A DNA stretch of 64,000 nucleotides. Source: an uncultured Clostridium sp. Lineage in GTDB: Bacteria; Bacillota_I; Bacilli_A; RF39; UBA660. Both the position numbers and the translations under genes were made by a program. Position 1 is the first letter of the stretch, and each line of letters starts with the position of its first letter. The notes beneath the pieces were generated by a model. That model did no database searches. It had not been told where the DNA came from and saw only the letters and a list, made by a program, of their open reading frames with translations. Below are positions 1,914 to 63,875 of this stretch, in pieces. Location: NCBI GenBank assembly GCA_946541575.1, contig CAMNJQ010000051.1, positions 12,985-76,984 on the forward strand, in the 5' to 3' direction.

Positions 1914-3141
1914 TAAAATTATAGAAATATTTAAGAAAAGCGAAGACGAAATAGATAAAGAGTTAAAAGAAATTGATAATCTTTGTTATTTTTATAGCAA
2001 TAAAGTTTTAAGTGCATTTAGGAATAACAATATTTCAGAAGTACATTTTAATTCAAGTACTGGATATGGATACAATGATATAGGAAGAGAAGCAATCGAA
2101 AAAGTTTTTAGTGAAGTTCTAGGAGGAGAAGATTCATTAGTAAGAAGTCAATTTATTTCTGGCAGTCATGCCTTAACAGTTACTTTGTTTGCCCTTTTAA
2201 GACCAAATGATACTTTATTAAGTATTACTGGAAAACCATATGATACTTTAGATGAAGTAATTGGAATAGTTGATAATCCTAGTTCTTTAAAATCATTTGG
2301 AGTTAATTATGAACAGATAGATTTAATTGATAATGACTTTGATTACAAATCAATAGAAGAAAAGCTTAATGAAAAGAAAATAAAAGTAATAGAAATTCAA
2401 AGGTCTAAAGGTTATTCAACAAGAAAAAGTTTAACATTAGATAAAATTGATAAAGTAATTGAGTTTATTAGAAAAATAGATAAAGATGTAATAATAATGA
2501 TAGATAATTGTTATTGTGAGTTTGTAGAGTATAAATCACCACTTGAAATAGATAATCCAGCAGATATAATTGTAGGATCGCTAATTAAAAATCTTGGTGG
2601 AGGAATTTCTCCAAATGGGGCATATGTTTCTGGTAAGAAAAAACTTATAGATCTAGTAGCCGATAGGTTAACTGTTCCAGGAGAAGGAAGAGAAGTTGGC
2701 CCAACTTTAGGAATAAATAGACTTATTTTACAAGGGTTGTTTATGGCTCCAAGTGTTGTATCATCTAGTTTAAAAACTGCTATTCTAACAAGTAAGGTTT
2801 TAGATAGTTTAGGATACGAAGTAGAGCCTAAATATAATGAAAAAAGAGCAGATATAGTGCAAAATATAATTTTTCATGATAGTGACAAGCTAATTAAATA
2901 TTGTCAAGGAATTCAAACAGGAAGTCCAATTGATTCAAATGTAACACCAATCCCATGGGATATGCCTGGTTATGTAGATAAAGTAATTATGGCAGCAGGA
3001 ACATTCACTCAAGGTTCATCGATAGAGATTTCTTGTGATGGACCAATAAGAGACCCTTATATTGCATATCAACAAGGAGGATTAACTTATGAATATGGAA
3101 AGATTGCAGTTATGTATGCTGTTTCTAATATTTTAAAATAA
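1903..3141 (+). CDS. ynbB: PLP-dependent YnbB / aluminium-resistance (Met gamma-lyase-like) family protein
   Basis: The stretch HFNSSTGYGYNDIGREAIEKVF...SGSHAL and the length of about 410 aa match my memory of the YnbB family. I chose the ATG at 1903 because GGTGGA lies 6 nt upstream. The ORF track start at 1891 is the alternative. Confidence 0.65.
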   Translation: MIDNKIIEIFKKSEDEIDKELKEIDNLCYFYSNKVLSAFRNNNISEVHFNSSTGYGYNDIGREAIEKVFSEVLGGEDSLVRSQFISGSHALTVTLFALLRPNDTLLSITGKPYDTLDEVIGIVDNPSSLKSFGVNYEQIDLIDNDFDYKSIEEKLNEKKIKVIEIQRSKGYSTRKSLTLDKIDKVIEFIRKIDKDVIIMIDNCYCEFVEYKSPLEIDNPADIIVGSLIKNLGGGISPNGAYVSGKKKLIDLVADRLTVPGEGREVGPTLGINRLILQGLFMAPSVVSSSLKTAILTSKVLDSLGYEVEPKYNEKRADIVQNIIFHDSDKLIKYCQGIQTGSPIDSNVTPIPWDMPGYVDKVIMAAGTFTQGSSIEISCDGPIRDPYIAYQQGGLTYEYGKIAVMYAVSNILK

Positions 3142-3168
3142 AGTGCCTAATTTGGCATTTTTCTTTTT
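3142..3168 (+). terminator. Weak rho-independent terminator
   Basis: AGTGCC-TAATTT-GGCATT hairpin followed by a T-rich tail. Confidence 0.35.
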
Positions 3169-3196
3169 ATATTTTCTATGATTTACTATAATTAAG

Positions 3197-3205
3197 TGTT
3201 ATAAT
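3197..3205 (+). promoter_or_regulatory. Extended -10 promoter (TGtTATAAT) for the 3238 operon
   Basis: GTGTTATAAT lies 33 nt upstream of the ATG. The same decamer occurs upstream of ftsK and dnaE. Confidence 0.5.
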
Positions 3206-3237: not shown

Positions 3238-6200
3238 ATGGCATACGTTTCAAAAAATCATAAAAATGATCCTAACTTTAATAAAACTCAAAATATAAAT
3301 AATAAAAATAAGCCACCATTTTCTTCTTCTTCTTCAATAAAAAGTAACGGATACAATAATAATGGATACAAAGCAATCAATAATTATAATCAAGTGAATA
3401 ATGGAAATTTACAAAATAGACTAAATACTTTAAAAGAAAAGCAAAAAAAAGTAGCAGCAAAAAAAGCAATAAAAGCAGCAGCAACAGCAGTTAATCCACT
3501 TGTAGGAGGAGCAGCAGCAGAAGCTGCAATGAACACCCCAGCAGGAAAAAGAGTTCTAAATGCATATTCGAAAGGGGATTCTGCCTCAGAAAGTTTTAAT
3601 AACGCAAAAAAACAAATAATAAAAGAAAAAATAAGAACAAAGATTATTATGTATGCAATTCCATGGGCATTAGGATTGTTTGCAATAATTTTTTTAATAA
3701 TTCTAGTAGCATCTGTTTTTAAAAATGCAGATAGTCAAATATATAGTAATGAGAACAATGGTACAGTAGAGTCAGAATTGTATCATCTTACAGATAAGGA
3801 AAAAAATATATTTAAAGCTTATCCTGGATTATATGAAAAAATAACAAAAAAATCAAAAGAGATAAGTAATAAATACAAAATTGAAATTGATAGGTTTTTA
3901 ATAATAGCAACTTTAGTTGCACCAATTGAAAATGGACTAATTCAACCAGTTGATGACGGAAGCTGTGGGGAACAGGAATGCTATTATTTTAAAGGTGAAT
4001 CAAAAACATGGAGTGAATTTTTAGATTTATGGGGAGATCAATCAGAATTACTTGCGAAAATGCAAATTTTAACATTTGTAAATAAAGAATCTGCTAGAAG
4101 TAAAGGACTTACTTGTGGTAGTGAAGAAACAATGGAACAATATGCAAAAAATGATCTAGCAGTAAGAGAACATTATTTCTTATGGTGGTTAAATCCAATA
4201 AATTGGTTTAGTACTTTTAGGACAGCAGTAGATGCAGAATTAAATGCAAAATGTACTGAAGCCCCTAATGGGAAAACAATAGTACCTGATGTGCCAACTT
4301 TATCTACATCTCAAGGAATATATTATCTTTCATATGATGAAAATCAAAAAGAAGTGTTCGAAAAAGATTCAAATTCTGGTGGAGTTTATTTTTGGAATCT
4401 AGTAAATCCAAAGGGATTTATACACGAGTATTTAAAAGACTATTTGTCAAATGAATATAGTGAAGATTTGAATAAAAATTATGAAATAAATAAAGAAAAA
4501 ATAGTAGATATAACAAATTATATTTATGCATATTATGAATCAATTAGAAAAGATTGTGAAGAACACAAAGTAATAGAAAGCACTATAGAAGAAATAACTG
4601 TATACAATCCACCTTCAAAGCAAGCAACATATGGTGTTCCTGAAATGCAAACGATTAATTTTGAAGATCAATATATTGGTGGAGTGATGCTTGCTGAATA
4701 TAATTCGGGAGGGGAGGAAGCACTTAAAGCATTTGCAATACTTGCAAGAACAGAGGCAGTTGCTGTAGTAGGACTTGATGGTGCTAAACCAATTGAAAAT
4801 AGTTCTAATGTACAAAACTATAATCCTAATTATAGCCCTGAAAAATATCCTAAAATTGCCAAAGCAGTTGAAGAAACAAGAGGAATAGTAGTAGGAAAGT
4901 TTGAATCTCCTAAAGTATGGCATACAGAGTATGATGCTTTTTGTCCAGTTAAAAATGTATTAGAGAATGGTTTCTATTATTTAGATGATGAGCAACAAAA
5001 TCTTCCGATTAGTCCATCTGCATATGAAAACGTTGCTCACAAGGGGTTTATAAGCGCAGATAGTAAATATTTAGATTGCCCATGCTTTCAAAATAATCAT
5101 TCGCGTCCACATGACCCTGATGCAGAGGATGAAAATACGAGATATTACCACTCAAACTCTGAGCCACCAACTTATTTAGGAGGAACCCCACCTCAAGAAA
5201 CTAAGCCTGGATGTTGGACATTAAAGGGAAATACAAGAGTAAATGAAGATAATGAAACAGAATATGCCTGGAAGTATAAACCTAGTGGAGGACATGGTAG
5301 AGGAGCAAGTCAATATGGATTAACATATTTTGATGCATTTGGTTATGATCAAGATGCTTTAATAAGATTGTTCTTTAAAAGTGCAAATTTAAGAATGCTA
5401 TCTAGCTCATTACCAGATGGAAAATGTGATAATATTCCATATTATGAAGGAGAAACAACAGCAGCTAGTTATAGCGGTGAATCTAATTATAATGAAGATG
5501 TAGGTGGAGTTCCTCTAAATATGTCACTTAAAGAAGCACTTTCAAAGGAAGGTCATACAATAAGTGATTTAAATAATTGTATAGGAACAAGAGTAGAAAG
5601 TGCAGGTCTTGGAACCCGTGAGGCAGTAGTAGAAGCTGGAATGGGACTTCTTGAATGTACTATGAATTTAACAGGTGGATTTACCTATCCATATGATCAT
5701 AGAGGTGGCTATATAGGAGAAGGACTAAATCCTGATATCATAGGTAAAATGGGAGTTAATAGTAAATGGGGAGAATATGCAAGTTATGCTACAGGCTGTA
5801 GTGGTGGAGCACCATGTAGATTAGGACTAAATTGTGCTAACTATGTTCGTTGGTCAATGTGTAATGGTGGAATGGACTTATGCTCTAGAGGTTCAACATT
5901 CGCAACAGGAATGGCAGGCGTTAATTCAAATGAAAATTATTTTCCAGGAGCTATTAGAGTAAGGTTGTCCCCTTCATTTTCTGTACTTTCAGGATCTTTG
6001 CCAAACGCAAATAGAGAAAGTGTATTAGACATGATAAAACCAGGTGATGTATTATATTCTGATCATGGAGGATCAGGAAATCATGTTATGTTAATAGTAG
6101 GAACAGACTCAAGTTATATTACCATTGCAGAAAATGGAAGAAAAACAAGAAAAATATCTCACAGTGAATTAACCTCTGGAAATATGACGTATGTAGTTTT

Positions 6201-6264
6201 ATTATTAGATGATTATTATGCAAATGAATCAAATAAAAACCATTTATCATATCCTGATATATAA
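3238..6264 (+). CDS. Membrane-anchored bifunctional cell-wall hydrolase (SpoIID/LytB-like domain plus C-terminal NlpC/P60-like domain)
   Basis: The N-terminus is Asn-rich and cytoplasmic, followed by a single TM segment (IIMYAIPWALGLFAIIFLIILVASVF). SpoIID-like motifs are GVMLAEYNSGGEEALKAFAILARTEAVA and GGHGRGASQYG. NlpC/P60-like motifs are Cys in GLNCANYVRW and His in GNHVMLIVG. The SD is strong (GGTGGTGAG). Confidence 0.6.
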   Translation: MAYVSKNHKNDPNFNKTQNINNKNKPPFSSSSSIKSNGYNNNGYKAINNYNQVNNGNLQNRLNTLKEKQKKVAAKKAIKAAATAVNPLVGGAAAEAAMNTPAGKRVLNAYSKGDSASESFNNAKKQIIKEKIRTKIIMYAIPWALGLFAIIFLIILVASVFKNADSQIYSNENNGTVESELYHLTDKEKNIFKAYPGLYEKITKKSKEISNKYKIEIDRFLIIATLVAPIENGLIQPVDDGSCGEQECYYFKGESKTWSEFLDLWGDQSELLAKMQILTFVNKESARSKGLTCGSEETMEQYAKNDLAVREHYFLWWLNPINWFSTFRTAVDAELNAKCTEAPNGKTIVPDVPTLSTSQGIYYLSYDENQKEVFEKDSNSGGVYFWNLVNPKGFIHEYLKDYLSNEYSEDLNKNYEINKEKIVDITNYIYAYYESIRKDCEEHKVIESTIEEITVYNPPSKQATYGVPEMQTINFEDQYIGGVMLAEYNSGGEEALKAFAILARTEAVAVVGLDGAKPIENSSNVQNYNPNYSPEKYPKIAKAVEETRGIVVGKFESPKVWHTEYDAFCPVKNVLENGFYYLDDEQQNLPISPSAYENVAHKGFISADSKYLDCPCFQNNHSRPHDPDAEDENTRYYHSNSEPPTYLGGTPPQETKPGCWTLKGNTRVNEDNETEYAWKYKPSGGHGRGASQYGLTYFDAFGYDQDALIRLFFKSANLRMLSSSLPDGKCDNIPYYEGETTAASYSGESNYNEDVGGVPLNMSLKEALSKEGHTISDLNNCIGTRVESAGLGTREAVVEAGMGLLECTMNLTGGFTYPYDHRGGYIGEGLNPDIIGKMGVNSKWGEYASYATGCSGGAPCRLGLNCANYVRWSMCNGGMDLCSRGSTFATGMAGVNSNENYFPGAIRVRLSPSFSVLSGSLPNANRESVLDMIKPGDVLYSDHGGSGNHVMLIVGTDSSYITIAENGRKTRKISHSELTSGNMTYVVLLLDDYYANESNKNHLSYPDI

Positions 6265-6282
6265 AACTTATGAGGAGCAAAT

Positions 6283-6993
6283 ATGAAGAAAAAAATTATT
6301 ATATGCATACTTTTAATAATATTAATGACTGGATGCAGTGCAAACTATAAAATTAAAATAAGTGACGGATTTGTTGAAGAAGCATTTAATGTTACTGAAA
6401 ATAATATGAGTATTGTTAATATTAAAGATGAATCTGGAAGAAGTTTTATAGATTATTCAAAACTTTATGGAAATGATTACAATCTTTATACTAGTTTTTA
6501 CAATTTGTATGCTGATGAAGGTTGTGCAAATAATTGTGATATATATGGAAAAACTTATATTAATAATGAATCAAATGTAGGATTTGAGCTATATCATAAA
6601 TTTAAAATTGATGAATATAAAGATTCATCATTAGCAAATGAATTACTGCCAGGATTTACAGCATATTACGATGAAAAAGATTTAATAATAAATGGTGGTA
6701 ATAATTGGAATTTTTTAGATTCTTATGAGTATTTAGATGAAATAACTATAGAGATTGAAACAGATTATAAAGTAAAAGAAACAAATGGTACAAAAAAAGA
6801 TAATTCATATATATGGAAAATAAAAAAGAATAATACAAATTCTAATATTTATATTGCTTTAGATACAACTAATAAAAATGATAATAAGAAAGAAACAAAG
6901 TCTTTTATAGTATTATTACTATTAATAATAGCTATTTTAACAATTATTTCATATTTATATTTTATGAAAAATAAAAATCAAAAAGATATATAA
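6283..6993 (+). CDS. Lipoprotein with C-terminal TM anchor, unknown function
   Basis: Has a lipobox (LMTGC) and a C-terminal hydrophobic helix (FIVLLLLIIAILTIISYLYF). The SD is GAGGAG. Confidence 0.6.
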   Translation: MKKKIIICILLIILMTGCSANYKIKISDGFVEEAFNVTENNMSIVNIKDESGRSFIDYSKLYGNDYNLYTSFYNLYADEGCANNCDIYGKTYINNESNVGFELYHKFKIDEYKDSSLANELLPGFTAYYDEKDLIINGGNNWNFLDSYEYLDEITIEIETDYKVKETNGTKKDNSYIWKIKKNNTNSNIYIALDTTNKNDNKKETKSFIVLLLLIIAILTIISYLYFMKNKNQKDI

Positions 6994-7053
6994 TAGTTTA
7001 AAAAAAAGCAAATATATGATATCATTTATAATGATTAGAGGATGTGAATTAAT

Positions 7054-9585
7054 ATGAAATTTAAATTCGTAGCAACACCAAAAGATGTTATGATTTTTGG
7101 CATTTTTGCGTTGTTTTTACTATACGTAGTTGCAATAGCAGTACTTAATATTCCACTACTTGCTGCTACTGGGACTTTTTATGGATTAAATCCAATAGAA
7201 GCATTTTCTCCTGAATATATTTCATACACTTTATTTATTTATCTTATTGCTTTGATTGGGCTTATATTAAGTGTTAATTCGTATTTCTTTGAATTTCAAG
7301 AAGGATTTGGACTAAAAATAAGTGATTCAAGCAGCGGAGGATATAGTAGTTGGGCAAAAGCTAAAGATATTAAAGAAGACAAAGGTGTAAAAAGAATTGT
7401 TGCATCAGCTTCAAAAGTAGATGCAGCAGGTACACCTCTAATTAGTAATGGTAAAGAATTATGGGTAGATGATGGAGAATATCATACTCTTGTAATAGGA
7501 GCTACTGGTAGTGGTAAAACTCAAAATACAATTTTACCAACAATTAAAGTTTTAGCCAAAAAAGGTGAATCAGTAATTGTTACAGACCCTAAAGGTGAAA
7601 TATATGAAAAAGCAGGTGGATTATTAAAGAAAAATGGATACAAAATAATCCTATTAAATTTCCGTAATCCACAAAATGGTAATACTTGGAATCCTCTAGA
7701 ATTACCGTATAGATTATATAAAAATGGTAATCAAGATAAAGCAATAGAATTACTTGATGACTTAGCTCTTAACATCTTATATGATGAAACAAATACTAAT
7801 AGCGATCCATTCTGGGAAAAAACAGCAGCAGATTATTTTTCAGGTATTGCACTTGCAATGTTTGAAGATACTACTGAGGATAAAATTAACATTAATAGTA
7901 TTAATATGACTGCAACTGTTGGAGAAGATAAATTTGGTGGATCAACATATATAAAAGAATATTTTAGTTATAAAGATCCTGCTAGTGCAGCTTATGTAAA
8001 TGCAAGTGGTACTGTTATGGCACCATCTGAAACTAAAGGTGGAATCATCTCAGTATTTAAACAAAAAGTTAAATTATTTGCATCTCGTGAAAACTTATCT
8101 GAAATGTTAAGTTATAGTGACTTTTCTATGGATAATATTGGAAAAGAACCTACCGCAGTATTTATAATTATTCAAGATGAAAAAAGAACATACCATCCTT
8201 TGGCCACAATTTTAATTAAACAAATTTACGAAACTTTAATTGATGTTGCACAAGAAAACGGAGGAAAACTTCCATGTAGAACAAATTTCTTACTTGATGA
8301 GTTTGCTAACATGCCACCTTTAAAAGATGTTACAACCATGATAACAGCAGCTCGTTCAAGGCAAATAAGATTTACGATGATTATTCAAAACTTTGCACAA
8401 TTAAATAAAGTATATGGAAAAGATGATGCAGAGACTATAAAAGGAAACTGTGGAAACATAATTTACCTTATATCAACTGAGCTAGCAGCACTAGAAGAAA
8501 TTAGTAAGCTATGTGGTGAAAAGAAATCTAAAAAAGATGATAAGACTGCTTCAACGCCTTTAGTAACAGTAAGTGATTTACAACGTATGAAACAGTTTGA
8601 TCAAATATTACTAAGATTAAGAAAAAATCCGTTTAAAACCTCTTTTGTACCTGATTTTAAAATTGATTGGGGAAATTCAGTACCAACAAAAGTAGAGTAC
8701 CCAGTAAGAGAAAAAAGAAAAGTTGAAATATTTGATATAAGAGAATTCGTAAAAGAAAAGAAAAATCAAAAAATTAATGAAATGATGGCATCAATAGGGC
8801 AAGAATCATCAAGCGGAGGATTTAACACCCCAATAGGAGGAACAAGACCTACTTTTGCTCCACCAAATGGACTATTTAATGATTCGGTTCCACAAATGCC
8901 ATTTCAAAGGAAACAACCTGAAATATCTGTCAATGACTTAGTAAAGAAAATTGATGAAAAACTTGCTGAAATTGAAAAAGAAGAGGAAGAAGCTAAGAAA
9001 AAGAAAGAAGCTGAAGAAAAGAAAAAAGACGAAAGAAAAATTTCTCCAGCTGATGAAACAAAAGAAATTATTAATAATATTGAAATAAATAATTATAAAA
9101 AAGATCAAGATCTTGAAATACCAGAAGCAAAAGTTGAAAACATACCTAAAAAATCATCAATTATTGATTATAATAAAGCAAGTAATGTTGAAATGTTAGA
9201 TGATGACTTATCTCTATCAAGTGAAGAGATTGAAAGAAAAGTTAATGAAAAATTATCTAATTCTAAAAACAAAGTTGAAATCAATAAAAATATAGAAAAA
9301 GATATAGAAAATGATATTGAAAAAGATATAGAAAGAAAAATCAATGAGAAAATACAAAAAGAGATTAATGATAAATTAAGACAACAAATTGATGAAGCAA
9401 TAGAAGAAAAAGTTGATGAAAAACTTAATAATTATAATTATGAGCCATATGAAGTAAATGATGAAGATGAAGAATTAATTGACAATTATAATAATAAAAA
9501 GAGTAATTTTAAGCCAACTTCAACTATTAAACTTGATGATGTTGCAGATGATGAAAAATTCTTTGATGATTTCTTTGATGATTAA
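7054..9585 (+). CDS. VirD4/TraG-family type IV coupling protein-like ATPase with long acidic/Lys-rich C-terminal tail
   Basis: Two N-terminal TM helices are followed by Walker A (GATGSGKTQ). The stretch TDPKGEIYE..NTWNPLE and the LLDEFANMP Walker B region are typical of T4CPs. The last 275 aa or so are low-complexity E/K/D/N-rich. Confidence 0.8.
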   Translation: MKFKFVATPKDVMIFGIFALFLLYVVAIAVLNIPLLAATGTFYGLNPIEAFSPEYISYTLFIYLIALIGLILSVNSYFFEFQEGFGLKISDSSSGGYSSWAKAKDIKEDKGVKRIVASASKVDAAGTPLISNGKELWVDDGEYHTLVIGATGSGKTQNTILPTIKVLAKKGESVIVTDPKGEIYEKAGGLLKKNGYKIILLNFRNPQNGNTWNPLELPYRLYKNGNQDKAIELLDDLALNILYDETNTNSDPFWEKTAADYFSGIALAMFEDTTEDKININSINMTATVGEDKFGGSTYIKEYFSYKDPASAAYVNASGTVMAPSETKGGIISVFKQKVKLFASRENLSEMLSYSDFSMDNIGKEPTAVFIIIQDEKRTYHPLATILIKQIYETLIDVAQENGGKLPCRTNFLLDEFANMPPLKDVTTMITAARSRQIRFTMIIQNFAQLNKVYGKDDAETIKGNCGNIIYLISTELAALEEISKLCGEKKSKKDDKTASTPLVTVSDLQRMKQFDQILLRLRKNPFKTSFVPDFKIDWGNSVPTKVEYPVREKRKVEIFDIREFVKEKKNQKINEMMASIGQESSSGGFNTPIGGTRPTFAPPNGLFNDSVPQMPFQRKQPEISVNDLVKKIDEKLAEIEKEEEEAKKKKEAEEKKKDERKISPADETKEIINNIEINNYKKDQDLEIPEAKVENIPKKSSIIDYNKASNVEMLDDDLSLSSEEIERKVNEKLSNSKNKVEINKNIEKDIENDIEKDIERKINEKIQKEINDKLRQQIDEAIEEKVDEKLNNYNYEPYEVNDEDEELIDNYNNKKSNFKPTSTIKLDDVADDEKFFDDFFDD

Positions 9586-9603
9586 TTAAAGTGGGGTGAG
9601 GTA

Positions 9604-10230
9604 ATGAAAAAAGTATTAATTTTAATAATGATTTTTTCAATATTTTTACCTGTAAAAACAAATGCAAATGAAACAAAAAGTGATACAGTTTCATTAAACA
9701 ATTGTGTAGATGCTAGTTCTGCAAGATTTATGCTAGGATTACATGAAATTAAAGTAAAGTTTATTGCTATTGAATCAGATGAAATAATTAAAGATGATGA
9801 AACTGATGAAATAAATGAAAACTTAGTAAGCGATTATGTTTGTGAAATGCTAAAAAGTGCCAAACAAATAAAAATAGAATATGAGCCTAAAGCACCAAAA
9901 GAAGACAAATATGGAAGAATTCAAGCATGGGTATTTGTAGACAATGTATTATTACAGGAAGATTTAGTAAGTATAGGCTATGCTAAAATAATGTATATGG
10001 AAGATGACTATTTATATGCTAATAAATTAAAAGAAGCTCAAAACAAAGCAAAAGAAATGAATTTAGGAATATGGAAAGACAAAAAAGAGGAAGAAAATCA
10101 TGTTGAACCTGAAAAAACTATTAAGGAAGAAAAGCCCAAAGGATTTTTTGAGTCAATAATAGACTTTTTTAAAAATTTGTTTAAAAGTTTATTATCGTTC
10201 ATAGATGATTTAATTAATAACATATTGTAA
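9604..10230 (+). CDS. Secreted/anchored thermonuclease (SNase) family nuclease
   Basis: Has a signal peptide (MKKVLILIMIFSIFLPVKTNA) and an SNase-like core (KYGRIQAWVFVDNVLLQEDLVSIGYAKI). The C-terminal tail is amphipathic. Confidence 0.75.
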   Translation: MKKVLILIMIFSIFLPVKTNANETKSDTVSLNNCVDASSARFMLGLHEIKVKFIAIESDEIIKDDETDEINENLVSDYVCEMLKSAKQIKIEYEPKAPKEDKYGRIQAWVFVDNVLLQEDLVSIGYAKIMYMEDDYLYANKLKEAQNKAKEMNLGIWKDKKEEENHVEPEKTIKEEKPKGFFESIIDFFKNLFKSLLSFIDDLINNIL

Positions 10231-10241
10231 AGGATTTAAAA

Positions 10242-11168
10242 ATGAAAAATAATTATATAATCGTTTCAAATGATAAAATAACAATCGATACTCGAGTAAA
10301 AAAAATTATAGAAGAAAAAAAAATAACTGATTATGAATTGATTAAATATACATATCCTGATAATTCAATTGATGATGTAATAGAAGAATTAAATACTTAC
10401 AATTTTTTAGCAAATACTAAAGTAGTTATTTTTCTTGAGTGTAGCTTTCTTAATAAAGAAAGCGATAAAAGTATAAAGAATTTAAAGAAATATCTTGAAA
10501 TTCCATCTGAAAACATTCTAATTATGACAAATGATATTTTAAGTGATTCTAAAGATATTAAAGAATTGATTTCTAAAAATACAGAGGTATTGGATAATAA
10601 AATATCCTCAGAAGTATTAATCAAAAACAATTTGGAAAATTATAAAATGGAAAACAAGACCGTTAAATATTTAGCAGAGTATTGTTTATACAATAATGAA
10701 AAAATAATTAATGAACTTGAAAAATTAAAATGTTATAAATATAGTGAATCTGATAAAAATATATCTATAGAAGATATTAATTTGATTGTTATGAGAGATT
10801 ATGATGATGATATATTTGATTTAGTTAATGCAATTGCGACAAGAAATAAAAATAAAGCAATTGACTTATATAAAAGAATTTCTAGAAAAGAAAAAGACTC
10901 AATAAATATTATCGCAAGTGTGTCTGGAAGTATAAGAAACTTATTTAGTGTAAAAATATTATTAGAAAGAAAAACAAAACCAAATGAAATATCAAATATT
11001 TTAGGAATCAAGCCATATGCAGTTCAAATTGCATCTGAAAATTGTAACAATTATAGTAAAAAGAAATTATTATATCTTCTTGATACATTAGCAGATATTG
11101 ACTATAAATCTAAAAGTGGTAATGGAAAAAGCAATTCGTTATTTGAAATGTTTCTACTAGAACTATAG
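10242..11168 (+). CDS. holA: DNA polymerase III delta subunit
   Basis: The 308-aa length fits. The N-terminal clamp-loader-like region is followed by IFDLVNAIATRNKNKAIDLYKRI and a C-terminal LLDTLADIDYKSKSG pattern, both typical of HolA. Confidence 0.7.
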   Translation: MKNNYIIVSNDKITIDTRVKKIIEEKKITDYELIKYTYPDNSIDDVIEELNTYNFLANTKVVIFLECSFLNKESDKSIKNLKKYLEIPSENILIMTNDILSDSKDIKELISKNTEVLDNKISSEVLIKNNLENYKMENKTVKYLAEYCLYNNEKIINELEKLKCYKYSESDKNISIEDINLIVMRDYDDDIFDLVNAIATRNKNKAIDLYKRISRKEKDSINIIASVSGSIRNLFSVKILLERKTKPNEISNILGIKPYAVQIASENCNNYSKKKLLYLLDTLADIDYKSKSGNGKSNSLFEMFLLEL

Positions 11169-11181
11169 GAGGTAGTAAAAT

Positions 11182-12405
11182 ATGTTGAAAAAAGCAATAT
11201 CATTTTCAATAATAATATTATTATTATTTTTAGCATATCAATATGGAATAAATTTTCTAAAGAAGAATCATACAATTAGCTATTCAATAGAAAAAGAAGA
11301 AAGTTTTAAAATTGAAGAAAATTATATTAAAAACTCAAATAATGATTATTATTTGATAAAAGTAACTAATAATGATAAAAATGAATTTATTTTTGATATT
11401 AATAATTTATTTAATAAACAAAAGCAAATTGTAGAAGATGTATCTGTATATGAAGATAATGGTTGGTATTGTTTATCATTAATTTATAAAAATAAGAAAA
11501 AGTCTTCAATTCCTTTATGTGAAAAAGAAGGAACTATTTATTCATATAATTATGCAAAAAACAATATTAATTTAGATGATTTTATTTCAAAATTACCAAA
11601 TATTGAGTCAGACGGACAATATAAAGATGCTGGAAATAGTGGAAATGGGTTTAATAAAGGTTACTTAGATGATGATGAGACAATGATTTTTTACAAATAT
11701 AAAAATTTATCAATAATAACCAATAAAATTGAAAACAACGTAAATTTTTCAAGTGAAGATCAATATAAGAATATTTTAGGTTCTGCCGTAGGGAAATTTT
11801 ATATAATACCAAAATATACATCTAATGCGACTGTAAAAGAATATATTAAGTATGACTTTGAAGCAAATACTAAAAATATTATTTCGTTTAATGCAGAAAT
11901 ATCAAAACAATCTTCTTACATTAATGGTGTATATGAAGGAAAATTATACATATTCGATAAAAGTACATTAACACAATACGAAATTGACCCTTATAATGAC
12001 AAAACAATTGTTACTGGTAATAAAGATAAAGATGCAATAGCAATTATAAATGGTGAAGAAAAAAATATTTCAGTATATGAAATGAATGAGAAAAATATAG
12101 TTTTTACGCCAAACTTAGATATATATAGCAAAATAAAATATGATAGTATTTATCCTTTTGATGAATTTGCTATTTATACAAGTAATGGAAATATGAATAA
12201 AGTTTATAATAAGTATCCAGATAATTCGATAGTACTTATTAATGATTCAGATGTAAAAGAAATAAAAGCAACGAATAATAGTATATATTATATTAAAGAT
12301 GATACTTTGTATAAATATAATAAAAATGGTATTTTTGTAATTACTAAGTCAAACGAATTGAAATACAATAATGAAAATATTTATGATATATTCTTAAATA
12401 ATTAA
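11182..12405 (+). CDS. N-terminally anchored extracytoplasmic protein, unknown function
   Basis: The SD is strong (AGGAGG). One N-terminal TM helix is present. It starts 13 nt after holA and is followed by a terminator. Confidence 0.55.
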   Translation: MLKKAISFSIIILLLFLAYQYGINFLKKNHTISYSIEKEESFKIEENYIKNSNNDYYLIKVTNNDKNEFIFDINNLFNKQKQIVEDVSVYEDNGWYCLSLIYKNKKKSSIPLCEKEGTIYSYNYAKNNINLDDFISKLPNIESDGQYKDAGNSGNGFNKGYLDDDETMIFYKYKNLSIITNKIENNVNFSSEDQYKNILGSAVGKFYIIPKYTSNATVKEYIKYDFEANTKNIISFNAEISKQSSYINGVYEGKLYIFDKSTLTQYEIDPYNDKTIVTGNKDKDAIAIINGEEKNISVYEMNEKNIVFTPNLDIYSKIKYDSIYPFDEFAIYTSNGNMNKVYNKYPDNSIVLINDSDVKEIKATNNSIYYIKDDTLYKYNKNGIFVITKSNELKYNNENIYDIFLNN

Positions 12406-12429
12406 GTACTAAATAATAGTACTTTTTTT
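12405..12429 (+). terminator. Rho-independent terminator ending the 3238-12405 operon
   Basis: AGTACT-AAATAAT-AGTACT hairpin followed by T7. Confidence 0.55.
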
Positions 12430-12489
12430 CTTTATGCTCTTTATTATAATAAAAAAATATTGTATACTAAATAATATAGGGTGATAGTG

Positions 12490-14133
12490 ATGATATTAAA
12501 GAAACCATATGCATTTTTAATAAAGCATTTTAGAATAATTCATGCTTTTTTATTAGTATTTGCATCGTATTTAATTTATAGATCACAAAATATAGCATCT
12601 TCATTTGATAGATATATAAATAATAAGCAAAGAATAACATCAATAATCAATGATTTAGATGGTATTGTTAATGTGATGATGTATATTATAATTGCTTTAA
12701 CTATAATAATTATTTCCGCAGTTATTTATTTGCTGAAATATAAAAAGAAACCAATTATTTTTTATATTTCAACAATTGGAATTTATATAATTGTTTTAAT
12801 TTCTTATATATATGCATCAACATTCTTTGAATCATTAAGATTTGAAACACCAGACTTAAGAATTGTTAATATATTAAAAGATGTATATCATGTAATAGTA
12901 TTAGTTCAAATACCAATAATAGTTTTATTTTTTATTAGAATGGTTGGATTTGATGTAAGGAAATTTGATTTTAAAAAAGATTTACTTGATTTAGGAGTAG
13001 ATGAAAAAGACAACGAGGAGTATGAAGTAAGTTTTGAACTTGATAGAGATACAATCCAATCATTTGTTAAAAAAAGTATTAGAATGAGCAAATATTTTTA
13101 TAAAGAAAATGGATTGATATTTAGAATTATTGAAATAGTACTTGCTGTTTTAATATTAACATTTGTAATTGGAATAATATCTTCAAGAGAAGTAATTTAT
13201 AAAGAAGGACAAACATTTGAAACAAATTATTACAATGCTAAAGTTGTAGAAACATACAAAACGTATAATGATTCATCAGGTAACAAGATTAGTAATAGTT
13301 TCTTTTATGTTATTGCTAAAATAAAATATAATAATATTACATCTAATGCATATACAATAAATACAAATAATATAATGTTATCATATGGTGAGGAATCGGT
13401 TAAACCAACTTCAGAATTTAATAATAAAATAACTGAATTTGGAGTTAACTATAATGGACAAGTATTAAATCCTTATGAAACAAGAGAATTTGTTTTTGTC
13501 TTTGAAGTCCCAAAAGAGTATTATGAATCTAATTTATTAATAAAATATTTATATAATATTAAATTTAAGAAAAATAGTTCAGAATCTGAATACGAATATA
13601 GAAAAATAAAAGTAGTTCCTAAAAAAATTGATAATAATAAAGAAACAATATCAACTAAATCATTAGGTGAAGAATTATCGTTTAATGGAAGCTTATTAGG
13701 AGATACAACTATTAAAATAAATGATATAAAGATGAATGATACATTTTTCTACAATGTAACAAAATGTATAGGAAAAACATGCGATTCGAAATTAAATACA
13801 ATAACTTCAAGACAAACAACTCAATTTGATTTAACATTAATGCGAATTAACTTTAATTTAAAATTTGATAGAGATAAATTGAGTGAATATTATAATAATT
13901 CAAAGTTTATAGAGCAATATGGAAGTATTAGATTTGAAATTGATGGTAAAGAATATAACAACAGACTATCATTAGTAGATGTTACTCCAATTAAAACTAA
14001 TGATTATGTATTTATTGAAATTAGAGACAAAGTTAAAAATGCTGATAAAATTTATATGGATTTTACAATAAGAGATAAAGTTTTTACATATATACTAAAA
14101 GATAATAAAAAAGAAGAAACAAAAGCTGAATAA
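12490..14133 (+). CDS. Polytopic membrane protein with large C-terminal extracytoplasmic domain, unknown function
   Basis: The N-terminal 230 aa or so contain 4-5 TM helices, followed by a beta-rich domain. I chose the ATG at 12490 because AGGGTGA lies 5 nt upstream. The ORF track GTG at 12481 is the alternative. Confidence 0.55.
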   Translation: MILKKPYAFLIKHFRIIHAFLLVFASYLIYRSQNIASSFDRYINNKQRITSIINDLDGIVNVMMYIIIALTIIIISAVIYLLKYKKKPIIFYISTIGIYIIVLISYIYASTFFESLRFETPDLRIVNILKDVYHVIVLVQIPIIVLFFIRMVGFDVRKFDFKKDLLDLGVDEKDNEEYEVSFELDRDTIQSFVKKSIRMSKYFYKENGLIFRIIEIVLAVLILTFVIGIISSREVIYKEGQTFETNYYNAKVVETYKTYNDSSGNKISNSFFYVIAKIKYNNITSNAYTINTNNIMLSYGEESVKPTSEFNNKITEFGVNYNGQVLNPYETREFVFVFEVPKEYYESNLLIKYLYNIKFKKNSSESEYEYRKIKVVPKKIDNNKETISTKSLGEELSFNGSLLGDTTIKINDIKMNDTFFYNVTKCIGKTCDSKLNTITSRQTTQFDLTLMRINFNLKFDRDKLSEYYNNSKFIEQYGSIRFEIDGKEYNNRLSLVDVTPIKTNDYVFIEIRDKVKNADKIYMDFTIRDKVFTYILKDNKKEETKAE

Positions 14134-19922: not shown

Positions 19923-22013
19923 ATGAAAAAATATGAATGTGTCTTACAAGATGGTCCAAAGGATTGTGGAATTTGCGCACTACTTACTATCATAAAAGCT
20001 CATGGTGGGTTAGTTTCAAAAGAATACCTAAGAAATCTAACCAATACGACTTCTAATGGTGTAAATGCTTTTCAATTACTAGAAGCTGGTAAGAAAATAG
20101 GTTTCTATACACAAGGGGTTAATGGTGATGTTTTAAAAATAGAAGATAAATATTTACCTTGTATTGCACATGTAATAATCGATAAAAAATATAAACATTT
20201 TGTTGTAATTCATAAAATAGATAGAAAAAATAATAATGTTATTATTGCTGATCCATCCAGAGGAATAATAAAGATAGATATTGATAAGTTTAAAAGTATT
20301 TCTACAAATAATTATTTATTTTTTATACCAAATAAAAATATCCCAATAATGAAAAGTAATAATTTAATAAAGAACAAAATAAATGAATTTATAAATAATA
20401 ATAAAAAAATACTTTTAACAATTCTTTTCTTTTCAATACTATATACAATTGCAAATATTGTATTATCATTTAATTTCCAATTTGTAATCGATAAGGCAGT
20501 ATCATTTTATTCAAAAGAAAATTTAGCGATTATAATAATGATTCTATTAATAATCTATCTATTAAAAATTATTTTAGAATTTTTTAGAGAAAGATTAATA
20601 AATTTTATAGGAAACAAAATTAGTTTTATATTAATTAACGATTCATTGAATCATATTTTATCACTTCCTATTTTGTACTTTAAGAATAGAACTACTGGTG
20701 AGGTTTTATCAAGAATTTCTGATTTGGATGAATTGAAGGAAATAATATGCTCTTTTGTTGTTACAGTTTTTGTTGATTTATTAATAACAGTATTTTCAAT
20801 AATAGTATTATTATGTATTTCTACAAAATTATCATTAATATTAATAATTGTAATTATATTTTATTCAGTTATAACAATAATATATAATAGGTTACTATAT
20901 AATAACATTAATGATATAAAAGAAAAAAATGCTTTAGTAAATTCAACTTTAATTGAAACAATAAATGGAGCAAATACTATTAAAGAGTTAAACATACTAG
21001 AATCATTTAAAGAAAACTTTTCAATTATCTATAACTCATATTTAAATACTAGTTATAAATTAAATGAGAGACTAAATAAAAAACAACTTATAGATAATAT
21101 TGTTTTCAGTATAATGTCATTACTGATACTAAAGTTTGGAGGAGAGTTAGTAATCAATAATGAACTAAAACTATCTAGTTTAATATCTTTTAATAGCATA
21201 GTGTTATATAATCTATCTTCGATAAAAAATTTATTAAATTTTGATATTTTAATAAAAAAGACAAAAATAATTATTGAAAGAATTAATGAATTACTAAATA
21301 TAAAAGAAGAAAAATTATATTTTGATCTTAATCCAATAAAGAATTTATGTGGTTCTATACGAATTAATGGATTATCGTATAAAATAAATGACATGACTAT
21401 TATCAATAACTTTAGTACAACAATAGAATTAGGTAAAAAAGTACTAATAACAGGTAGTTCTGGATGTGGAAAAAGTACTTTGGCTAAGATTCTATCAGGT
21501 TTTCTTGAGGTAAAAAGAAATAAAGTGTTTATTGGAAATAATGACATAAATGATTATAATTTATGGAATTTAAGAGAACAAATAACTTATGTTTCTCAAA
21601 ACGAATATTTATTTAATAGCTCTTTATACGAAAATATTAACTTAAAAAAAACACGTGATAAAAATAGAGTAATAGATATTTCTAAATGTATGTTGATTGA
21701 CGAAATTGCTTCTAAAAATAAAAGCGGATATGAAATGTTACTTGAAGAAAATGCAAGTAATATAAGTGGAGGAGAAAGGCAAAGAATAATACTTGCACGA
21801 ACATTTTTAAAAAATAGTAACATATACATTTTAGATGAAACATTTAGTGAAATAAACATTGACAAAGAAAGAACAATATTGAAAAATATTTTTGAAAAAT
21901 TTAAAGATAAAACGATAATAGTTATTTCTCATAGATATGATAATAATGATTTATATGATGAAATCTACAATATGGAGAATTATGGAAATAGAAACATTTC
22001 AAAAGAATATTAA
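19923..22013 (+). CDS. Bacteriocin-processing ABC exporter with N-terminal C39 peptidase domain
   Basis: The N-terminal motif QDGPKDCGICAL carries the C39 catalytic Cys. A six-helix TMD is followed by Walker A (GSSGCGKST), the signature ISGGERQR and Walker B (IYILDE). The SD is GAGGAGGTGA. Confidence 0.85.
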   Translation: MKKYECVLQDGPKDCGICALLTIIKAHGGLVSKEYLRNLTNTTSNGVNAFQLLEAGKKIGFYTQGVNGDVLKIEDKYLPCIAHVIIDKKYKHFVVIHKIDRKNNNVIIADPSRGIIKIDIDKFKSISTNNYLFFIPNKNIPIMKSNNLIKNKINEFINNNKKILLTILFFSILYTIANIVLSFNFQFVIDKAVSFYSKENLAIIIMILLIIYLLKIILEFFRERLINFIGNKISFILINDSLNHILSLPILYFKNRTTGEVLSRISDLDELKEIICSFVVTVFVDLLITVFSIIVLLCISTKLSLILIIVIIFYSVITIIYNRLLYNNINDIKEKNALVNSTLIETINGANTIKELNILESFKENFSIIYNSYLNTSYKLNERLNKKQLIDNIVFSIMSLLILKFGGELVINNELKLSSLISFNSIVLYNLSSIKNLLNFDILIKKTKIIIERINELLNIKEEKLYFDLNPIKNLCGSIRINGLSYKINDMTIINNFSTTIELGKKVLITGSSGCGKSTLAKILSGFLEVKRNKVFIGNNDINDYNLWNLREQITYVSQNEYLFNSSLYENINLKKTRDKNRVIDISKCMLIDEIASKNKSGYEMLLEENASNISGGERQRIILARTFLKNSNIYILDETFSEINIDKERTILKNIFEKFKDKTIIVISHRYDNNDLYDEIYNMENYGNRNISKEY

Positions 22014-32476: not shown

Positions 32477-32548
32477 TAAAAAAATAAACTAAAAAATATT
32501 TTTTTAGTTTTTTTTATGCTATAATAATATAGAATAGGTGAGAATAAA

Positions 32549-35564: not shown

Positions 35565-35648
35565 AATAAGACCTCCCTTAAAATAAATTACTTGCTAGAT
35601 AACTTTATCATAAATTTTAGTTTTAGTCAAATGTTTTAAGTACATTTG

Positions 35649-35657
35649 TGTTATAAT
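35649..35657 (+). promoter_or_regulatory. Extended -10 promoter (TGtTATAAT) for dnaE
   Basis: TTGTGTTATAAT lies 22 nt before the ATG at 35679. Confidence 0.5.
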
Positions 35658-35678
35658 ACGATTAGGAGGGTTGCAATT

Positions 35679-56460: not shown

Positions 56461-56465
56461 ACGAT

Positions 56466-63791: not shown

Positions 63792-63868
<77 letters not shown>

Positions 63869-63875
63869 GTTTTTT

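Follow-up and report, generated by a model that had tools for sequence, protein, structure and literature searches.

The four genes at 3238-10230 of the window (the whole stretch of DNA that was analysed, 64,000 nt) are assigned, on domain matches and the gene order of relatives, to the distal part of a monoderm-type (MPF-FATA-like) T4SS that appears to be chromosomally fixed across a large lineage of uncultured gut and rumen Bacilli. They encode a cell-wall hydrolase, a lipoprotein, a VirD4-type coupling ATPase (T4CP) and an SNase-fold protein. It is considered probable that they constitute a split-off distal half of this chromosomal T4SS, that the system is still functional, and that the adjacency of the module to holA is incidental. 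The initial annotation had recognized the hydrolase, lipoprotein and VirD4-like ATPase genes as T4SS genes and had regarded the module as domesticated in the chromosome rather than carried on an ICE or plasmid; both points are borne out, the former by domain matches and the synteny of relatives and the latter by the housekeeping genes that flank the module.

The module opens a run of six tightly packed plus-strand ORFs over 3238-12405, for which the ORF list, the coordinates and the intergenic gaps (18, 60, 18, 11 and 13 nt) proved identical to those first reported. The features of the region are as follows:

3140..3161, plus strand: terminator-like hairpin (8-bp stem with 3 GC pairs, T-run; scanner call)
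3196..3204, plus strand: extended -10 element TGTTATAAT, read directly in the sequence
after TGTTATAAT and ahead of the ATG at 3238, plus strand: ribosome-binding site AGGTGGTGAG, read directly
3238..6264, plus strand: TM-anchored cell-wall hydrolase, 1008 aa (SpoIID PF08486, E 5e-9)
6283..6993, plus strand: lipoprotein, 236 aa, with C-terminal TM anchor (lipobox LMTGC and TM read in the translation)
7054..9585, plus strand: VirD4-type T4CP, 843 aa (T4SS-DNA_transf, E 6e-62)
9559..9582, plus strand: C-terminal FFDDFFDD motif of the T4CP (FFDDFF in 79/79 full-length relatives)
9604..10230, plus strand: signal-peptide SNase-fold protein, 208 aa, with C-terminal amphipathic/hydrophobic tail (PF00565)
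10242..11168, plus strand: holA, DNA polymerase III delta subunit (TIGR01128, 177 bits against a cut-off of 80)
11182..12405, plus strand: orf407, 407 aa, with N-terminal TM helix and all-beta extracellular region
12404..12431, plus strand: weak AT-rich hairpin AAGTACTA-N5-TAGTACTT with T-run (8-bp stem, read directly)
12481..14133, plus strand: orf550, polytopic membrane protein, 550 aa

The hairpin at 3140-3161 closes the upstream methionine gamma-lyase gene and is the 5' boundary of the unit. The extended -10 element previously placed at 3197 is readable, but it is without statistical support because promoter-like matches in this AT-rich DNA (26% GC) occur at chance level, with 106 found against 94 expected. 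Likewise, the terminator proposed at 12405 corresponds to an AT-rich hairpin with a T-run that was missed by the terminator scanner; it may possibly mark the operon end. No internal terminator was seen between the six genes in the terminator scan, and the GC content is not anomalous. The translations of the module show its lipobox, signal peptide and N-terminal TM helices.

The hydrolase combines a SpoIID-like lytic transglycosylase module with a C-terminal NlpC/P60-like papain-fold domain. This architecture had been proposed earlier, and while its SpoIID part stands, the NlpC/P60 match is weak and falls short of the Pfam cut-off (E 4e-3); the domain is matched by five of seven hydrolase orthologues, and the best PDB match for the domain is CwlO, with an alignment that spans the catalytic-Cys motif (Cys/His motif). 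Its orthologues sit after VirB4 in relatives, its dN/dS is 0.17, and it is read as the VirB1-type component of the T4SS. The lipoprotein, for which a Pfam search of the 236 aa gave no match, is a fast-evolving surface component (dN/dS 0.61) encoded between the hydrolase and the T4CP; in approximately every second relative, its position is filled by a protein of ~260 aa that is anchored at the N-terminus and is not homologous to it. The best fold match of its AF2 model (pLDDT 81.6) is LppM of M. tuberculosis (2nc8, E 4.7e-7), and this predicted LppM-like fold is a newly found detail. A VirB8/NTF2 fold was also considered for the lipoprotein and, as far as the model indicates, is ruled out by LppM being the best match instead.

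The T4CP exceeds the cut-off of the NCBIfam 'VirD4-like, CD1115 family' model (302 bits against 250) and, besides two N-terminal TM helices and a long linker of low complexity, has a Walker A motif at residue 149 (GATGSGKT). Its identity to relatives is 67-89% among the best 80 of 458 related stretches. The motor domain is the most constrained gene product of the neighbourhood, with a dN/dS of ~0.03, computed between two species having the split described below in common, compared to 0.11 for holA and 0.06 for ABC transporters; these values are comparative only because dS is near saturation (1.0-1.6). Strong purifying selection on the hydrolase, lipoprotein and VirD4-like ATPase genes is supported. 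The FFDDFF of the C-terminal tail was also found in T4CP representatives of 50-61% identity and was missing from the inspected T4CPs of 48% identity or less; its apparent universality within the T4CP family is a newly found detail, and the FFDDFFDD tail is presumed to be a docking motif. The closest plasmid T4CP, only 31% identical, is encoded by pCLL of C. botulinum, a conjugative plasmid of the MOBP type whose component set is similar.

What had been described as a secreted SNase nuclease does possess a signal peptide and the SNase fold (40 bits against PF00565, cut-off 21; PDB match to staphylococcal nuclease, E 6e-11), but in the clade of the window several canonical catalytic residues are replaced (D21 to S, R35 to K, D40 to E and T41 to S), a newly found detail; the clade-B orthologues L018 and L024 retain DGDT...R...DTPE. 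The dN/dS is 0.12. This surface protein would more likely bind nucleic acid than degrade it. Its gene is missing beside the T4CP in most clades.

The assignment of the module derives from its relatives, the 458 related stretches having been found in species-representative genomes (one genome per species). Gene order was compared across 80 loci, of which 67 had enough upstream DNA, and in 63 of these 67 species loci the T4CP lies downstream of genes for T4SS-pilin-like, VirB6/TrbL-like, VirB3-like, TrsD-like and VirB4 proteins, the last with an identity of at least 76.7%. The usual order begins with a pilus-type T2SSE-ATPase cluster (directly upstream of the T4SS in at least 30 loci), T4SS-pilin-like, DUF6273-like, in some cases a second pilin, and VirB6/TrbL-like genes, and continues with VirB3-like, TrsD-like, VirB4, hydrolase, small membrane protein or lipoprotein, and T4CP genes; VirB4 and the T4CP are separated by the same hydrolase and a small membrane protein in every near relative and in the majority of loci. 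VirB4 was assigned with the NCBIfam models Mbov_0397 (346 bits) and CD1110 (170 bits), and its best 120 database matches have identities of 87-100% to the query; the upstream families were assigned as T4SS_pilin and TrbL_4. The hosts are uncultured low-GC gut and rumen Bacilli, comprising hundreds of species, with small genomes of ~1.3 Mb (contigs of 1.28-1.32 Mb, including one that was deposited as a chromosome), in which the T4SS is embedded among housekeeping genes. IS elements occur near some of the related clusters. Synteny classes coincide with tiers of T4CP identity, and T4CP identity co-varies with that of the neighbouring holA (rho 0.78, p 0.0075); from these classes and the co-divergence with linked genes, we infer that the T4SS is inherited vertically.

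In the species of the window and its nearest relative (L091, 94% identical), the cluster is interrupted between VirB4 and the hydrolase gene, and its distal part now lies behind SDR and methionine-gamma-lyase genes. Breaks at or near this junction were also found in other species; complementary VirB4-half loci without the hydrolase (L089/L090, L100, L102 and L106) and other T4CP-side breaks (L006, L016, L031 and L055) were identified. The split is a derived state common to the species of the window and one close relative. A T4SS-pilin homologue (47% identity, E 8e-26) is located ~120 nt past the end of the window on the same contig, and inspection of ~84 kb of this 109.5-kb contig revealed no VirB4, VirB6 or VirB3 gene. 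Among contigs of the rumen metagenome project that produced L002, the locus with the T4CP of the window, the closest candidate (L099) belongs to the species of L015 (94% DNA identity). The cluster first broke after VirB4, and a later loss of a bPH_3 gene placed the SNase gene 11 nt from holA. The split T4SS would still function, given that the T4CP motor is so constrained and that the pilin homologue has been kept on the contig.

No sequence feature identifying a substrate was found in the cluster. The closest parallels of this T4SS are the chromosomal T4SS of Patescibacteria and the archaeal Ced system. The former descends from MPF-FATA systems, in most cases has no relaxase and is required for epibiotic growth (PMC12102498), a parallel that lends weight to exaptation for a non-DNA task, namely the delivery of proteins or effectors, or the uptake of material from neighbouring cells, in a dependent or epibiotic lifestyle, with the genes of the window as the wall-opening and substrate-recruiting part. 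Such a role, the main alternative and possible but rather unlikely, accords with the chromosomal location and lineage-wide occurrence of the T4SS, near which no relaxase was seen, with the small genomes and the pilus-type ATPase cluster upstream, and with the catalytic degeneracy of the SNase-fold protein. However, the Patescibacteria T4CP is mostly encoded apart from virB4 and is not essential (PMC12102498), whereas the VirD4-family T4CP of these Bacilli is both tightly linked and the most constrained component; moreover, CD1115-type T4CPs are otherwise known from DNA conjugation, and no effector-like gene is recognizable in the cluster.

The initial annotation had instead proposed a VirB4-less and relaxase-less DNA translocation device made up of the ATPase, the nuclease and the wall hydrolase, domesticated within a holA operon in the position of comEC and serving uptake or export of DNA. 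The tight gaps without a visible internal terminator, the strong constraint on the T4CP, the lack of VirB4, relaxase and integrase genes in the window, and the failure to find a ComEC family match in the ~84 kb of contig inspected are in keeping with this proposal, but it is largely refuted by the synteny of relatives and must be deemed very improbable. The same genes are contiguous with VirB4, VirB6, VirB3 and pilin genes there, such that the module in the window would be the detached half of a complete T4SS and its split a derived one with a pilin gene kept, while the loss of nuclease catalytic residues also argues against the proposal. Synteny of comEC and holA is known from Bacillus; no counterpart of it was found in any of the ~170 related loci fetched. 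The comEC-slot argument itself fails because only the nearest ~14 species, which form one sub-clade, have holA after the T4SS, and because its contact with the SNase gene stems from the loss of bPH_3. In those species, bPH_3, with or without a thioredoxin-like gene, rather than a T4SS gene precedes holA, and in L091 the SNase gene and holA are still separated by bPH_3; direct contact is a species-specific feature attributed to a recent bPH_3 deletion. Other clades have, after the T4CP, genes for rhodanese, RmuC, TrpRS, trigger factor, Lon or TypA. Hence, holA is a housekeeping neighbour outside the T4SS; its co-transcription with the module is plausible, even probable, because of the 11-nt gap, but would be functionally incidental.

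Two further genes accompany holA. For orf407, which has no Pfam or NCBIfam match and for which a single-sequence AF2 model was unusable (pLDDT 43), 24 relatives have a homologue downstream of the T4CP region, with identities that track those of the T4CP (rho 0.89). Its equivalence to the ~400-aa DUF6273-like protein that other clades encode after the T4CP was ruled out, as the two are non-homologous. The product of orf550, also without a Pfam match, is always found with orf407 in relatives (rho 0.87 with T4CP identity), and the gene probably has its own promoter. Together, holA, orf407 and orf550 are taken to be syntenic neighbours of the T4SS module.

A currently mobile ICE or integrated plasmid spreading horizontally among these Bacilli would explain why the cluster shares its components with Firmicute conjugation systems and why the flanks of the cluster vary between clades, yet it is more improbable still. 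As the initial annotation had stated, the window has no VirB4, relaxase, integrase or att repeat: tblastn with the T4SS proteins of relatives gave no match to VirB4 or its partners in the 64,000 nt, no att-like direct repeats flank the module, and neither relaxase nor integrase is present in the Pfam annotation (precomputed or direct, covering almost all called genes) from ~10 kb upstream to ~32 kb downstream of the window. The loci of relatives do carry VirB4, but no relaxase, integrase or replication gene was found in the annotated flanks, the relaxase having been sought within ~10 kb of the clusters at a handful of loci. The correspondence of synteny classes with T4CP identity tiers, the tracking of holA by T4CP identity, the distance to the nearest plasmid T4CP and the occurrence of hundreds of related stretches among one-per-species genomes also speak against mobility. 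Least probable is a decaying, non-functional ICE remnant, as might be suggested by the incomplete cluster in the window, the lost bPH_3 gene, the degenerate SNase residues and the IS elements near some related clusters, given four intact ORFs, a T4CP motor dN/dS of 0.03 between two split-bearing species, retention of the T4SS in hundreds of species with well-conserved VirB4, and core-gene flanks of typical GC without att repeats.

The favoured reading thus remains that of a chromosomal T4SS, split in this species and still functional. The hydrolase would open the peptidoglycan to let the channel pass, and the T4CP, through its ATPase and invariant C-terminal FFDDFF tail, would recruit and energise a substrate. 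Although the SNase partner has a degenerate active site and is missing beside the T4CP in most clades, the system is tentatively viewed, on the model of archaeal Ced or of chromosomal transfer in mycoplasmas, as a domesticated conjugation machine that may serve cell-to-cell DNA exchange within this lineage.

The six + strand ORFs of the module (3238-12405; hydrolase, lipoprotein, T4CP, SNase-like protein, holA and orf407) and the gaps of 18, 60, 18, 11 and 13 nt between them were recovered exactly as in the initial annotation. Most of its domain calls were likewise reproduced by profile search (SpoIID, VirD4-type ATPase, SNase and holA, the last with 177 bits against TIGR01128, for which the cut-off is 80), whereas the NlpC/P60 call stayed below threshold; the lipoprotein, orf407 and the following orf550 (12481-14133) matched no family in these searches. 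Homology of orf407 with the ~400-aa DUF6273-like protein located 3' of the T4CP elsewhere was rejected at an hhalign probability of 25%, and a single-sequence AF2 model of orf407 (pLDDT 43) was unusable. Three sequence signals accompany the operon:

3140-3161, + strand: terminator hairpin that ends the upstream methionine gamma-lyase gene
3196-3204, + strand: promoter-like element TGTTATAAT, with a strong ribosome-binding site downstream
3' of orf407, + strand: weak AT-rich hairpin followed by a T-run, read from the sequence

Transcript boundaries that fit these signals are plausible rather than demonstrated, since promoter-like matches occur at chance level in DNA of 26% GC, where a scan for promoters and terminators is uninformative.

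The window, a portion of a 109.5-kb sheep-rumen metagenome scaffold with a GC content of ~26% and nearly all genes on the + strand, is otherwise composed of core chromosome (ftsA, ftsZ, ftsK, sepF, divIVA, dnaE, polC, dnaG, sigA, leuS, tRNAs and a T-box). Families of VirB4, relaxase and integrase were absent from it, as initially annotated, and likewise from ~10 kb upstream and ~32 kb downstream, by annotation and homology searches; the window contained no VirB6-like, VirB3/PrgI-like or TrsD-like protein, and no att-like direct repeats were found to bracket the module. A HerA/DUF87-type ATPase (591 aa; 32549-34324), which together with a preceding 119-aa ORF occupies 32117-34324 between a PgeF-like gene and sepF/divIVA, was considered as a hidden VirB4 and rejected, being HerA/FtsK-like, situated in a division cluster and dissimilar to the VirB4 of relatives. 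Elsewhere in the window, DnaE-type (973-984 aa, 35646-38600) and PolC-type (1658 aa, 39508-44484) alpha subunits of DNA polymerase III are encoded within 9 kb, with a 278-aa ORF of no family between them, and a sigma-70-family ORF of unusual length (710 aa, 44560-46692) is found just 5' of dnaG and of a sigA of normal size (362 aa). A Peptidase_C39 ABC transporter of the bacteriocin-exporter type (19923-22013) adjoins small ORFs without families, a protein with SpoVID-N and LysM domains (52801-53529) represents a sporulation-type domain in a small-genome lineage, and a T-box leader (132 bits; 56465-56668) precedes an HD-domain gene and leuS.

The VirD4-type coupling ATPase (T4CP) belongs to the VirD4 family (PF02534, E 6e-62) and scored 302 bits against the CD1115 family model NF045973 (cut-off 250). 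It has TM helices at the N-terminus, and its Walker A motif, GATGSGKT, is at residue 149. Its C-terminal tail carries the motif FFDDFF (window 9559-9582; also the C-termini encoded at the related loci L003-L082), which all 79 full-length T4CPs of the family carried at the very C-terminus or a few residues before it, preceded by a variable, low-complexity linker of 150-400 aa that is hypervariable and acidic/lysine-rich. The motif was retained in representatives of 50-61% identity and missing from the inspected T4CPs at 48% identity or less. It is specific to the family and looks like a motif by which a conserved partner docks. P0140, the nearest outgroup T4CP, is 48% identical and is encoded on a contig too short to show its gene context.

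The hydrolase, which corresponds to the VirB1 component of a T4SS, is a TM-anchored protein of 1008 aa with a SpoIID domain (E 5e-9). Its C-terminal domain is NlpC/P60-like at sub-threshold level; a profile search of the PDB gave a sub-threshold match to CwlO, and the single sequence matched nothing in the PDB. Hydrolases of other clades bear different C-terminal domains, as judged by eye from their translations. For the lipoprotein, the AF2 model (pLDDT 81.6) matched the fold of Mycobacterium tuberculosis LppM by Foldseek; LppM, too, combines a lipobox with a TM anchor at the C-terminus. The lipoprotein was the one candidate examined as a VirB8-like (NTF2-fold) component, and it was rejected because the PDB profile search was empty and neither VirB8, TcpC nor PrgL was among the top fold matches. 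In about half of the relatives, its position is held by a non-homologous, N-terminally anchored protein.

The fourth gene had been described as a secreted nuclease. Its product has the fold, the sequence family and the secretion of staphylococcal nuclease (40 bits in Pfam; staphylococcal nuclease in the PDB, E 6e-11), but differs from it in the catalytic set: residues D21, D40, T41, E43, R35 and R87 of S. aureus nuclease A correspond to S, E, S, E, K and R, respectively. Only R87 and E43 are thereby retained in the window copy, and E43 is variable among close orthologues. The replacement of D21, R35, D40 and T41 in the window's clade makes a nuclease role doubtful, and the protein would more probably bind nucleic acid at the cell surface, or be a strongly altered enzyme, than act as a standard nuclease. 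Two SNase orthologues of clade B, the group of relatives that includes L018 and L024, have the canonical DGDT...R...DTPE arrangement (D, D, T, E, R, R), and an SNase-fold partner is attached to the T4SS in two clades.

With each species represented by one genome, a scan identified 458 stretches encoding relatives of the T4CP. The best 80 of these, with T4CPs 67-89% identical over 560 residues, were all from uncultured MAGs labelled Bacilli, Tenericutes or Erysipelotrichaceae, of guts and rumens. In nearly all of these loci, gene-order analysis placed a series of T4SS genes 5' of those for the hydrolase, a small membrane protein and the T4CP. The products of this series are as follows:

~110 aa, often with a second of ~127 aa: T4SS_pilin (PF18895) proteins
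~400 aa: DUF6273-like protein
550-730 aa: TrbL/VirB6-like polytopic protein (TrbL_4, E 9e-7)
~105 aa: VirB3-like protein
183-184 aa: TrsD-like protein, matching the N-terminus of VirB4 (PF26593)
595-599 aa: VirB4 ATPase

In 67 loci, the sequence 5' of the T4CP extended for 8 kb or more, and in 63 of these it contained VirB6, VirB3, TrsD and VirB4. The conservation of VirB4 is extraordinary: its identity was at least 76.7% across the species of those loci (range 77-94%), and the best 120 database matches had 87-100% identity to the query. The best NCBIfam model for these VirB4 proteins was the Mbov_0397 ATPase of mycoplasma ICEs (346 bits), followed by the CD1110 family; the match to the CedD model was weak (E 1.4e-9). 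The relatives' cluster is therefore a monoderm-type T4SS with its full set of genes, and the window contains its distal part only.

In at least 30 loci of several clades (e.g., L092:1-5007 and L039:2-2000), the T4SS is directly preceded by a pilus-type gene cluster with ORFs for an RcpC/SAF-like protein, a T2SSE ATPase (436 aa), two polytopic proteins, a pilin-like protein (56 aa), a 147-aa protein and a TadZ-like protein (313 aa). The name "Tad" is tentative for this cluster, as Pfam supported the T2SSE ATPase and none of its other genes. The window itself encodes two very large type-IV-pilin-like proteins, at 50653-52722 (689 aa, DUF285) and 54656-56434 (592 aa, DUF6273), both with an N-terminal methylation motif; DUF6273-like proteins also occur within the T4SS clusters of relatives.

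The T4SS of this lineage is chromosomal and apparently inherited vertically. It is flanked by housekeeping genes, which in one clade are those for rhodanese, DedA, RmuC, TrpRS, trigger factor and Lon, in another those for TypA and ProRS (read from translations), and in the window's own holA, and tiers of T4CP identity coincide with classes of synteny. The identity of the T4CPs to that of the window co-varies with that of the neighboring holA (rho 0.78, p 0.0075), orf407 (rho 0.89) and orf550 (rho 0.87), and the closest plasmid-borne T4CP, from the conjugative (MOBP) plasmid pCLL of Clostridium botulinum, shares only 31% identity. The annotated flanks of relatives contained no family of relaxases, integrases or replication proteins, nor was there any relaxase family in the Pfam annotation of the window's contig region or in the flanks of L081, L017, L015 and L092, four related loci. 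The T4SS thus resembles known domesticated systems in being chromosomal and conserved throughout its lineage, with no cognate relaxase in the cluster.

Given this organization, the proposal of a DNA translocation system that operates without VirB4 was not borne out: the same genes adjoin VirB4 in relatives, and its absence here reflects a broken cluster. In the window's species, genes for an SDR protein and methionine gamma-lyase precede the hydrolase gene, and the nearest relative, L091 (T4CP 94% identical), has the same junction, so that the break predates the divergence of the two. Clusters are broken in other species too, several of them at the same junction of VirB4 and hydrolase, with breaks on the T4CP side in L006, L016, L031 and L055 and on the VirB4 side, where VirB4 is followed by unrelated genes, in L089/L090, L100, L102 and L106. 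Evidently, this T4SS tolerates separation of its channel module from the module of hydrolase and T4CP. The recurrent breaks may have been caused by IS elements. IS-type genes lie in or beside related T4SS clusters (UPF0236 transposase, L094:3448-4851; IS605 OrfB HTH, L097:3318-3944), and a SpoIIIAH-domain protein is encoded directly after VirB4 in one split locus (L089:4789-5292).

Estimates of selection on the split module are as follows:

Table. dN/dS between the window's species and L091; dS is near saturation (1.0-1.6), and the values are comparative only.
T4CP motor domain: 0.03
ABC transporters: 0.06
holA: 0.11
SNase-like gene: 0.12
Hydrolase: 0.17
Lipoprotein: 0.61

These comparative values indicate that the split hydrolase-T4CP module is not decaying, and that the SNase-like gene, at 0.12, is still constrained. 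Moreover, although no small membrane protein of VirB2 or T4SS-pilin type was found inside the window, a T4SS-pilin homologue of 161 aa with a signal peptide is encoded at L087:11196-11681, equivalent to approximately window 64124-64609, ~120 nt past the 3' end; it follows tRNA-Ile and tRNA-Asn genes (63792-63952) and lies ~52 kb from the hydrolase-T4CP module. The protein is 47% identical (E 8e-26) to the relatives' second T4SS pilin, which is PF18895-positive, and had no Pfam match of its own at E 0.01. Its presence on the same contig suggests that the T4SS genes have been dispersed in the genome, not lost. A VirB4 of the window's genome was not found in ~12.5-96 kb of the contig, and none of the closest VirB4 proteins (P0274, P0292 and P0278) came from a sample known to hold that contig. 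Among scanned metagenome contigs, L099, the one from the same AUXO01 project as L002, was considered as the VirB4 half of this genome and dismissed, since its DNA is 94% identical to L015 and hence from another species.

The adjacency of the module to holA had been interpreted as occupation of the position normally held by comEC. In Bacillus subtilis, the neighborhood is comEA-comEB-comEC / holA, and there, as here, genes for a membrane machine that translocates DNA precede holA; the genes upstream are, however, non-homologous to those of the module, and no ComEC domain was present in the inspected contig, the annotation of which contained no Competence, ComEC or ComEA family. Only in the nearest ~14 species does holA lie 3' of the T4SS, in the order T4CP, SNase-like, (thioredoxin/TraF-like), bPH_3, holA, orf407 and orf550. 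The next clade has the string thioredoxin, bPH_3, orf407 and orf550 without holA, and further clades have none of these genes 3' of the T4CP. The bPH_3 gene, retained in L091, was lost in the window's species, giving rise to the 11-nt junction between the SNase-like gene and holA. The idea of a comEC slot is thus unsupported, with bPH_3, thioredoxin-like and SNase-like genes preceding holA in relatives and the adjacency confined to one sub-clade; co-transcription of the module with holA is still likely, but recent and incidental.

Among the closest described counterparts are the monoderm conjugative T4SSs (MPF-FATA class) of Firmicute plasmids and ICEs, such as those of C. botulinum pCLL and the C. 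difficile CTn-type elements (CD1115/CD1110). They have in common with the lineage's T4SS a T4CP, VirB6-, VirB3- and TrsD-like proteins, VirB4, an NlpC/P60-type wall hydrolase and small pilin-like membrane proteins, and like it they lack outer-membrane components; pCLL has a comparable set of components in a different gene order. These plasmid and ICE systems are carried on mobile elements, whereas that of the lineage is chromosomal, lineage-wide and co-diverging with its neighbors, and no relaxase, integrase or replication gene was seen near it. It further differs in having the T4CP at the 3' rather than the 5' end of the cluster, a family-specific FFDDFF tail on this ATPase and a SpoIID-like module in the hydrolase. 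The mycoplasma ICEs (CDS5 TraG, CDS17 TraE/VirB4 and CDS14 lipoprotein), compared here together with mycoplasma chromosomal transfer, also include a surface lipoprotein within the transfer cluster, and the host lineage consists of Mollicutes-related Bacilli, several of its MAGs having been deposited as Tenericutes or Mycoplasmatota. Yet the relatives' VirB4, for which Mbov_0397 was the best model, fell below the cut-off of that family (590 bits), no DDE transposase was seen, and the site is fixed rather than random. These organisms have a cell wall, and hence a hydrolase is present, unlike in the mycoplasma ICEs. As a further similarity, mycoplasma ICEs are not known to have a canonical relaxase.

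Two domesticated systems bear on function. The archaeal Ced/Ted DNA import machinery, which acts with Ups pili, is of conjugation type, chromosomal and vertically inherited (PMC9905601). Together with a type IV pilus system, Ced provides for within-species DNA exchange, the direction of which is established as import (PMC9905601). The pairing with a pilus has a parallel in the pilus-type cluster upstream of the lineage's T4SS, but Ced is without a VirD4-type T4CP, which the latter has. The T4SS of Patescibacteria is derived from MPF-FATA and encoded in the chromosome; it is widely conserved across a lineage of reduced genomes, in which a relaxase is mostly lacking (PMC12102498). It has TrsD-, PrgI/VirB3-, VirB6- and VirB2-like parts near VirB4, associated type IV-like pili, and peptidoglycan hydrolases encoded downstream of virB4 (PMC12102498). 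These features are shared by the lineage's T4SS, which is known from its genes alone and belongs to a different phylum. The Patescibacteria T4SS is essential for epibiotic growth, and a non-DNA role has been proposed for it (PMC12102498); such a role is the main alternative for the lineage described here, and a chromosomal, mostly relaxase-less and MPF-FATA-derived system provides its precedent (PMC12102498). The T4CP, however, is usually unlinked and dispensable in Patescibacteria, whereas most species of the lineage have it linked, and it shows the strongest constraint of the genes compared.

With somewhat less than even confidence, we lean toward DNA exchange between cells as the function of the lineage's T4SS, on the grounds of its tightly linked VirD4/CD1115-type T4CP, its conjugative closest homologues, a VirB4 nearest to the mycoplasma ICE ATPases and the SNase-fold partner in two clades. 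For such exchange, the hydrolase would open the wall, the T4CP would serve as substrate receptor and motor with a VirB4/VirB6/VirB3 channel encoded elsewhere, and the FFDDFF tail may provide a site for an adaptor. Of the initial reading of the module, its T4SS-derived, chromosomal and selected nature stands, but a VirB4-less system is unsupported, the comEC slot fails and the nuclease is doubtful; the evidence supports the window genes as the distal module of a monoderm T4SS domesticated in the chromosome. A broader proposal, more speculative and rather unlikely, is that an order-level lineage of uncultured, small-genome Bacilli permanently domesticated a complete, pilus-coupled monoderm conjugation machine, with ATPases conserved at the level of housekeeping proteins, for routine cell-to-cell exchange (relaxase-free DNA transfer or uptake from partners) as a counterpart to the Ced and Patescibacteria systems; FFDDFF would then be a docking site for substrate or adaptor, and the de-activated SNase-fold protein a nucleic-acid receptor.

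Every component is a recognizable T4SS part, and the type of machine is already known. No description of this lineage's T4SS was found in the searched literature on Erysipelotrichales and on RFN20 and RF39, GTDB orders to which the lineage may belong, and its chromosomal, apparently relaxase-less, vertical and split-tolerant status, the family-specific T4CP tail and the linkage of T4SS and pilus cluster were likewise absent from the literature searched. The window itself represents an ordinary outcome of cluster fragmentation, and the broader interest lies in the lineage-wide T4SS, for which, if its status is confirmed, the FFDDFF tail and the SNase-like protein would offer concrete experimental handles. 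On the same condition, this would be the second bacterial reduced-genome lineage, after Patescibacteria, with a conjugation-derived T4SS as a core function and, unlike Patescibacteria, with a T4CP that is retained and tightly constrained, and it would bear on the DNA exchange or neighbor dependence of abundant uncultured Bacilli of the gut and rumen.
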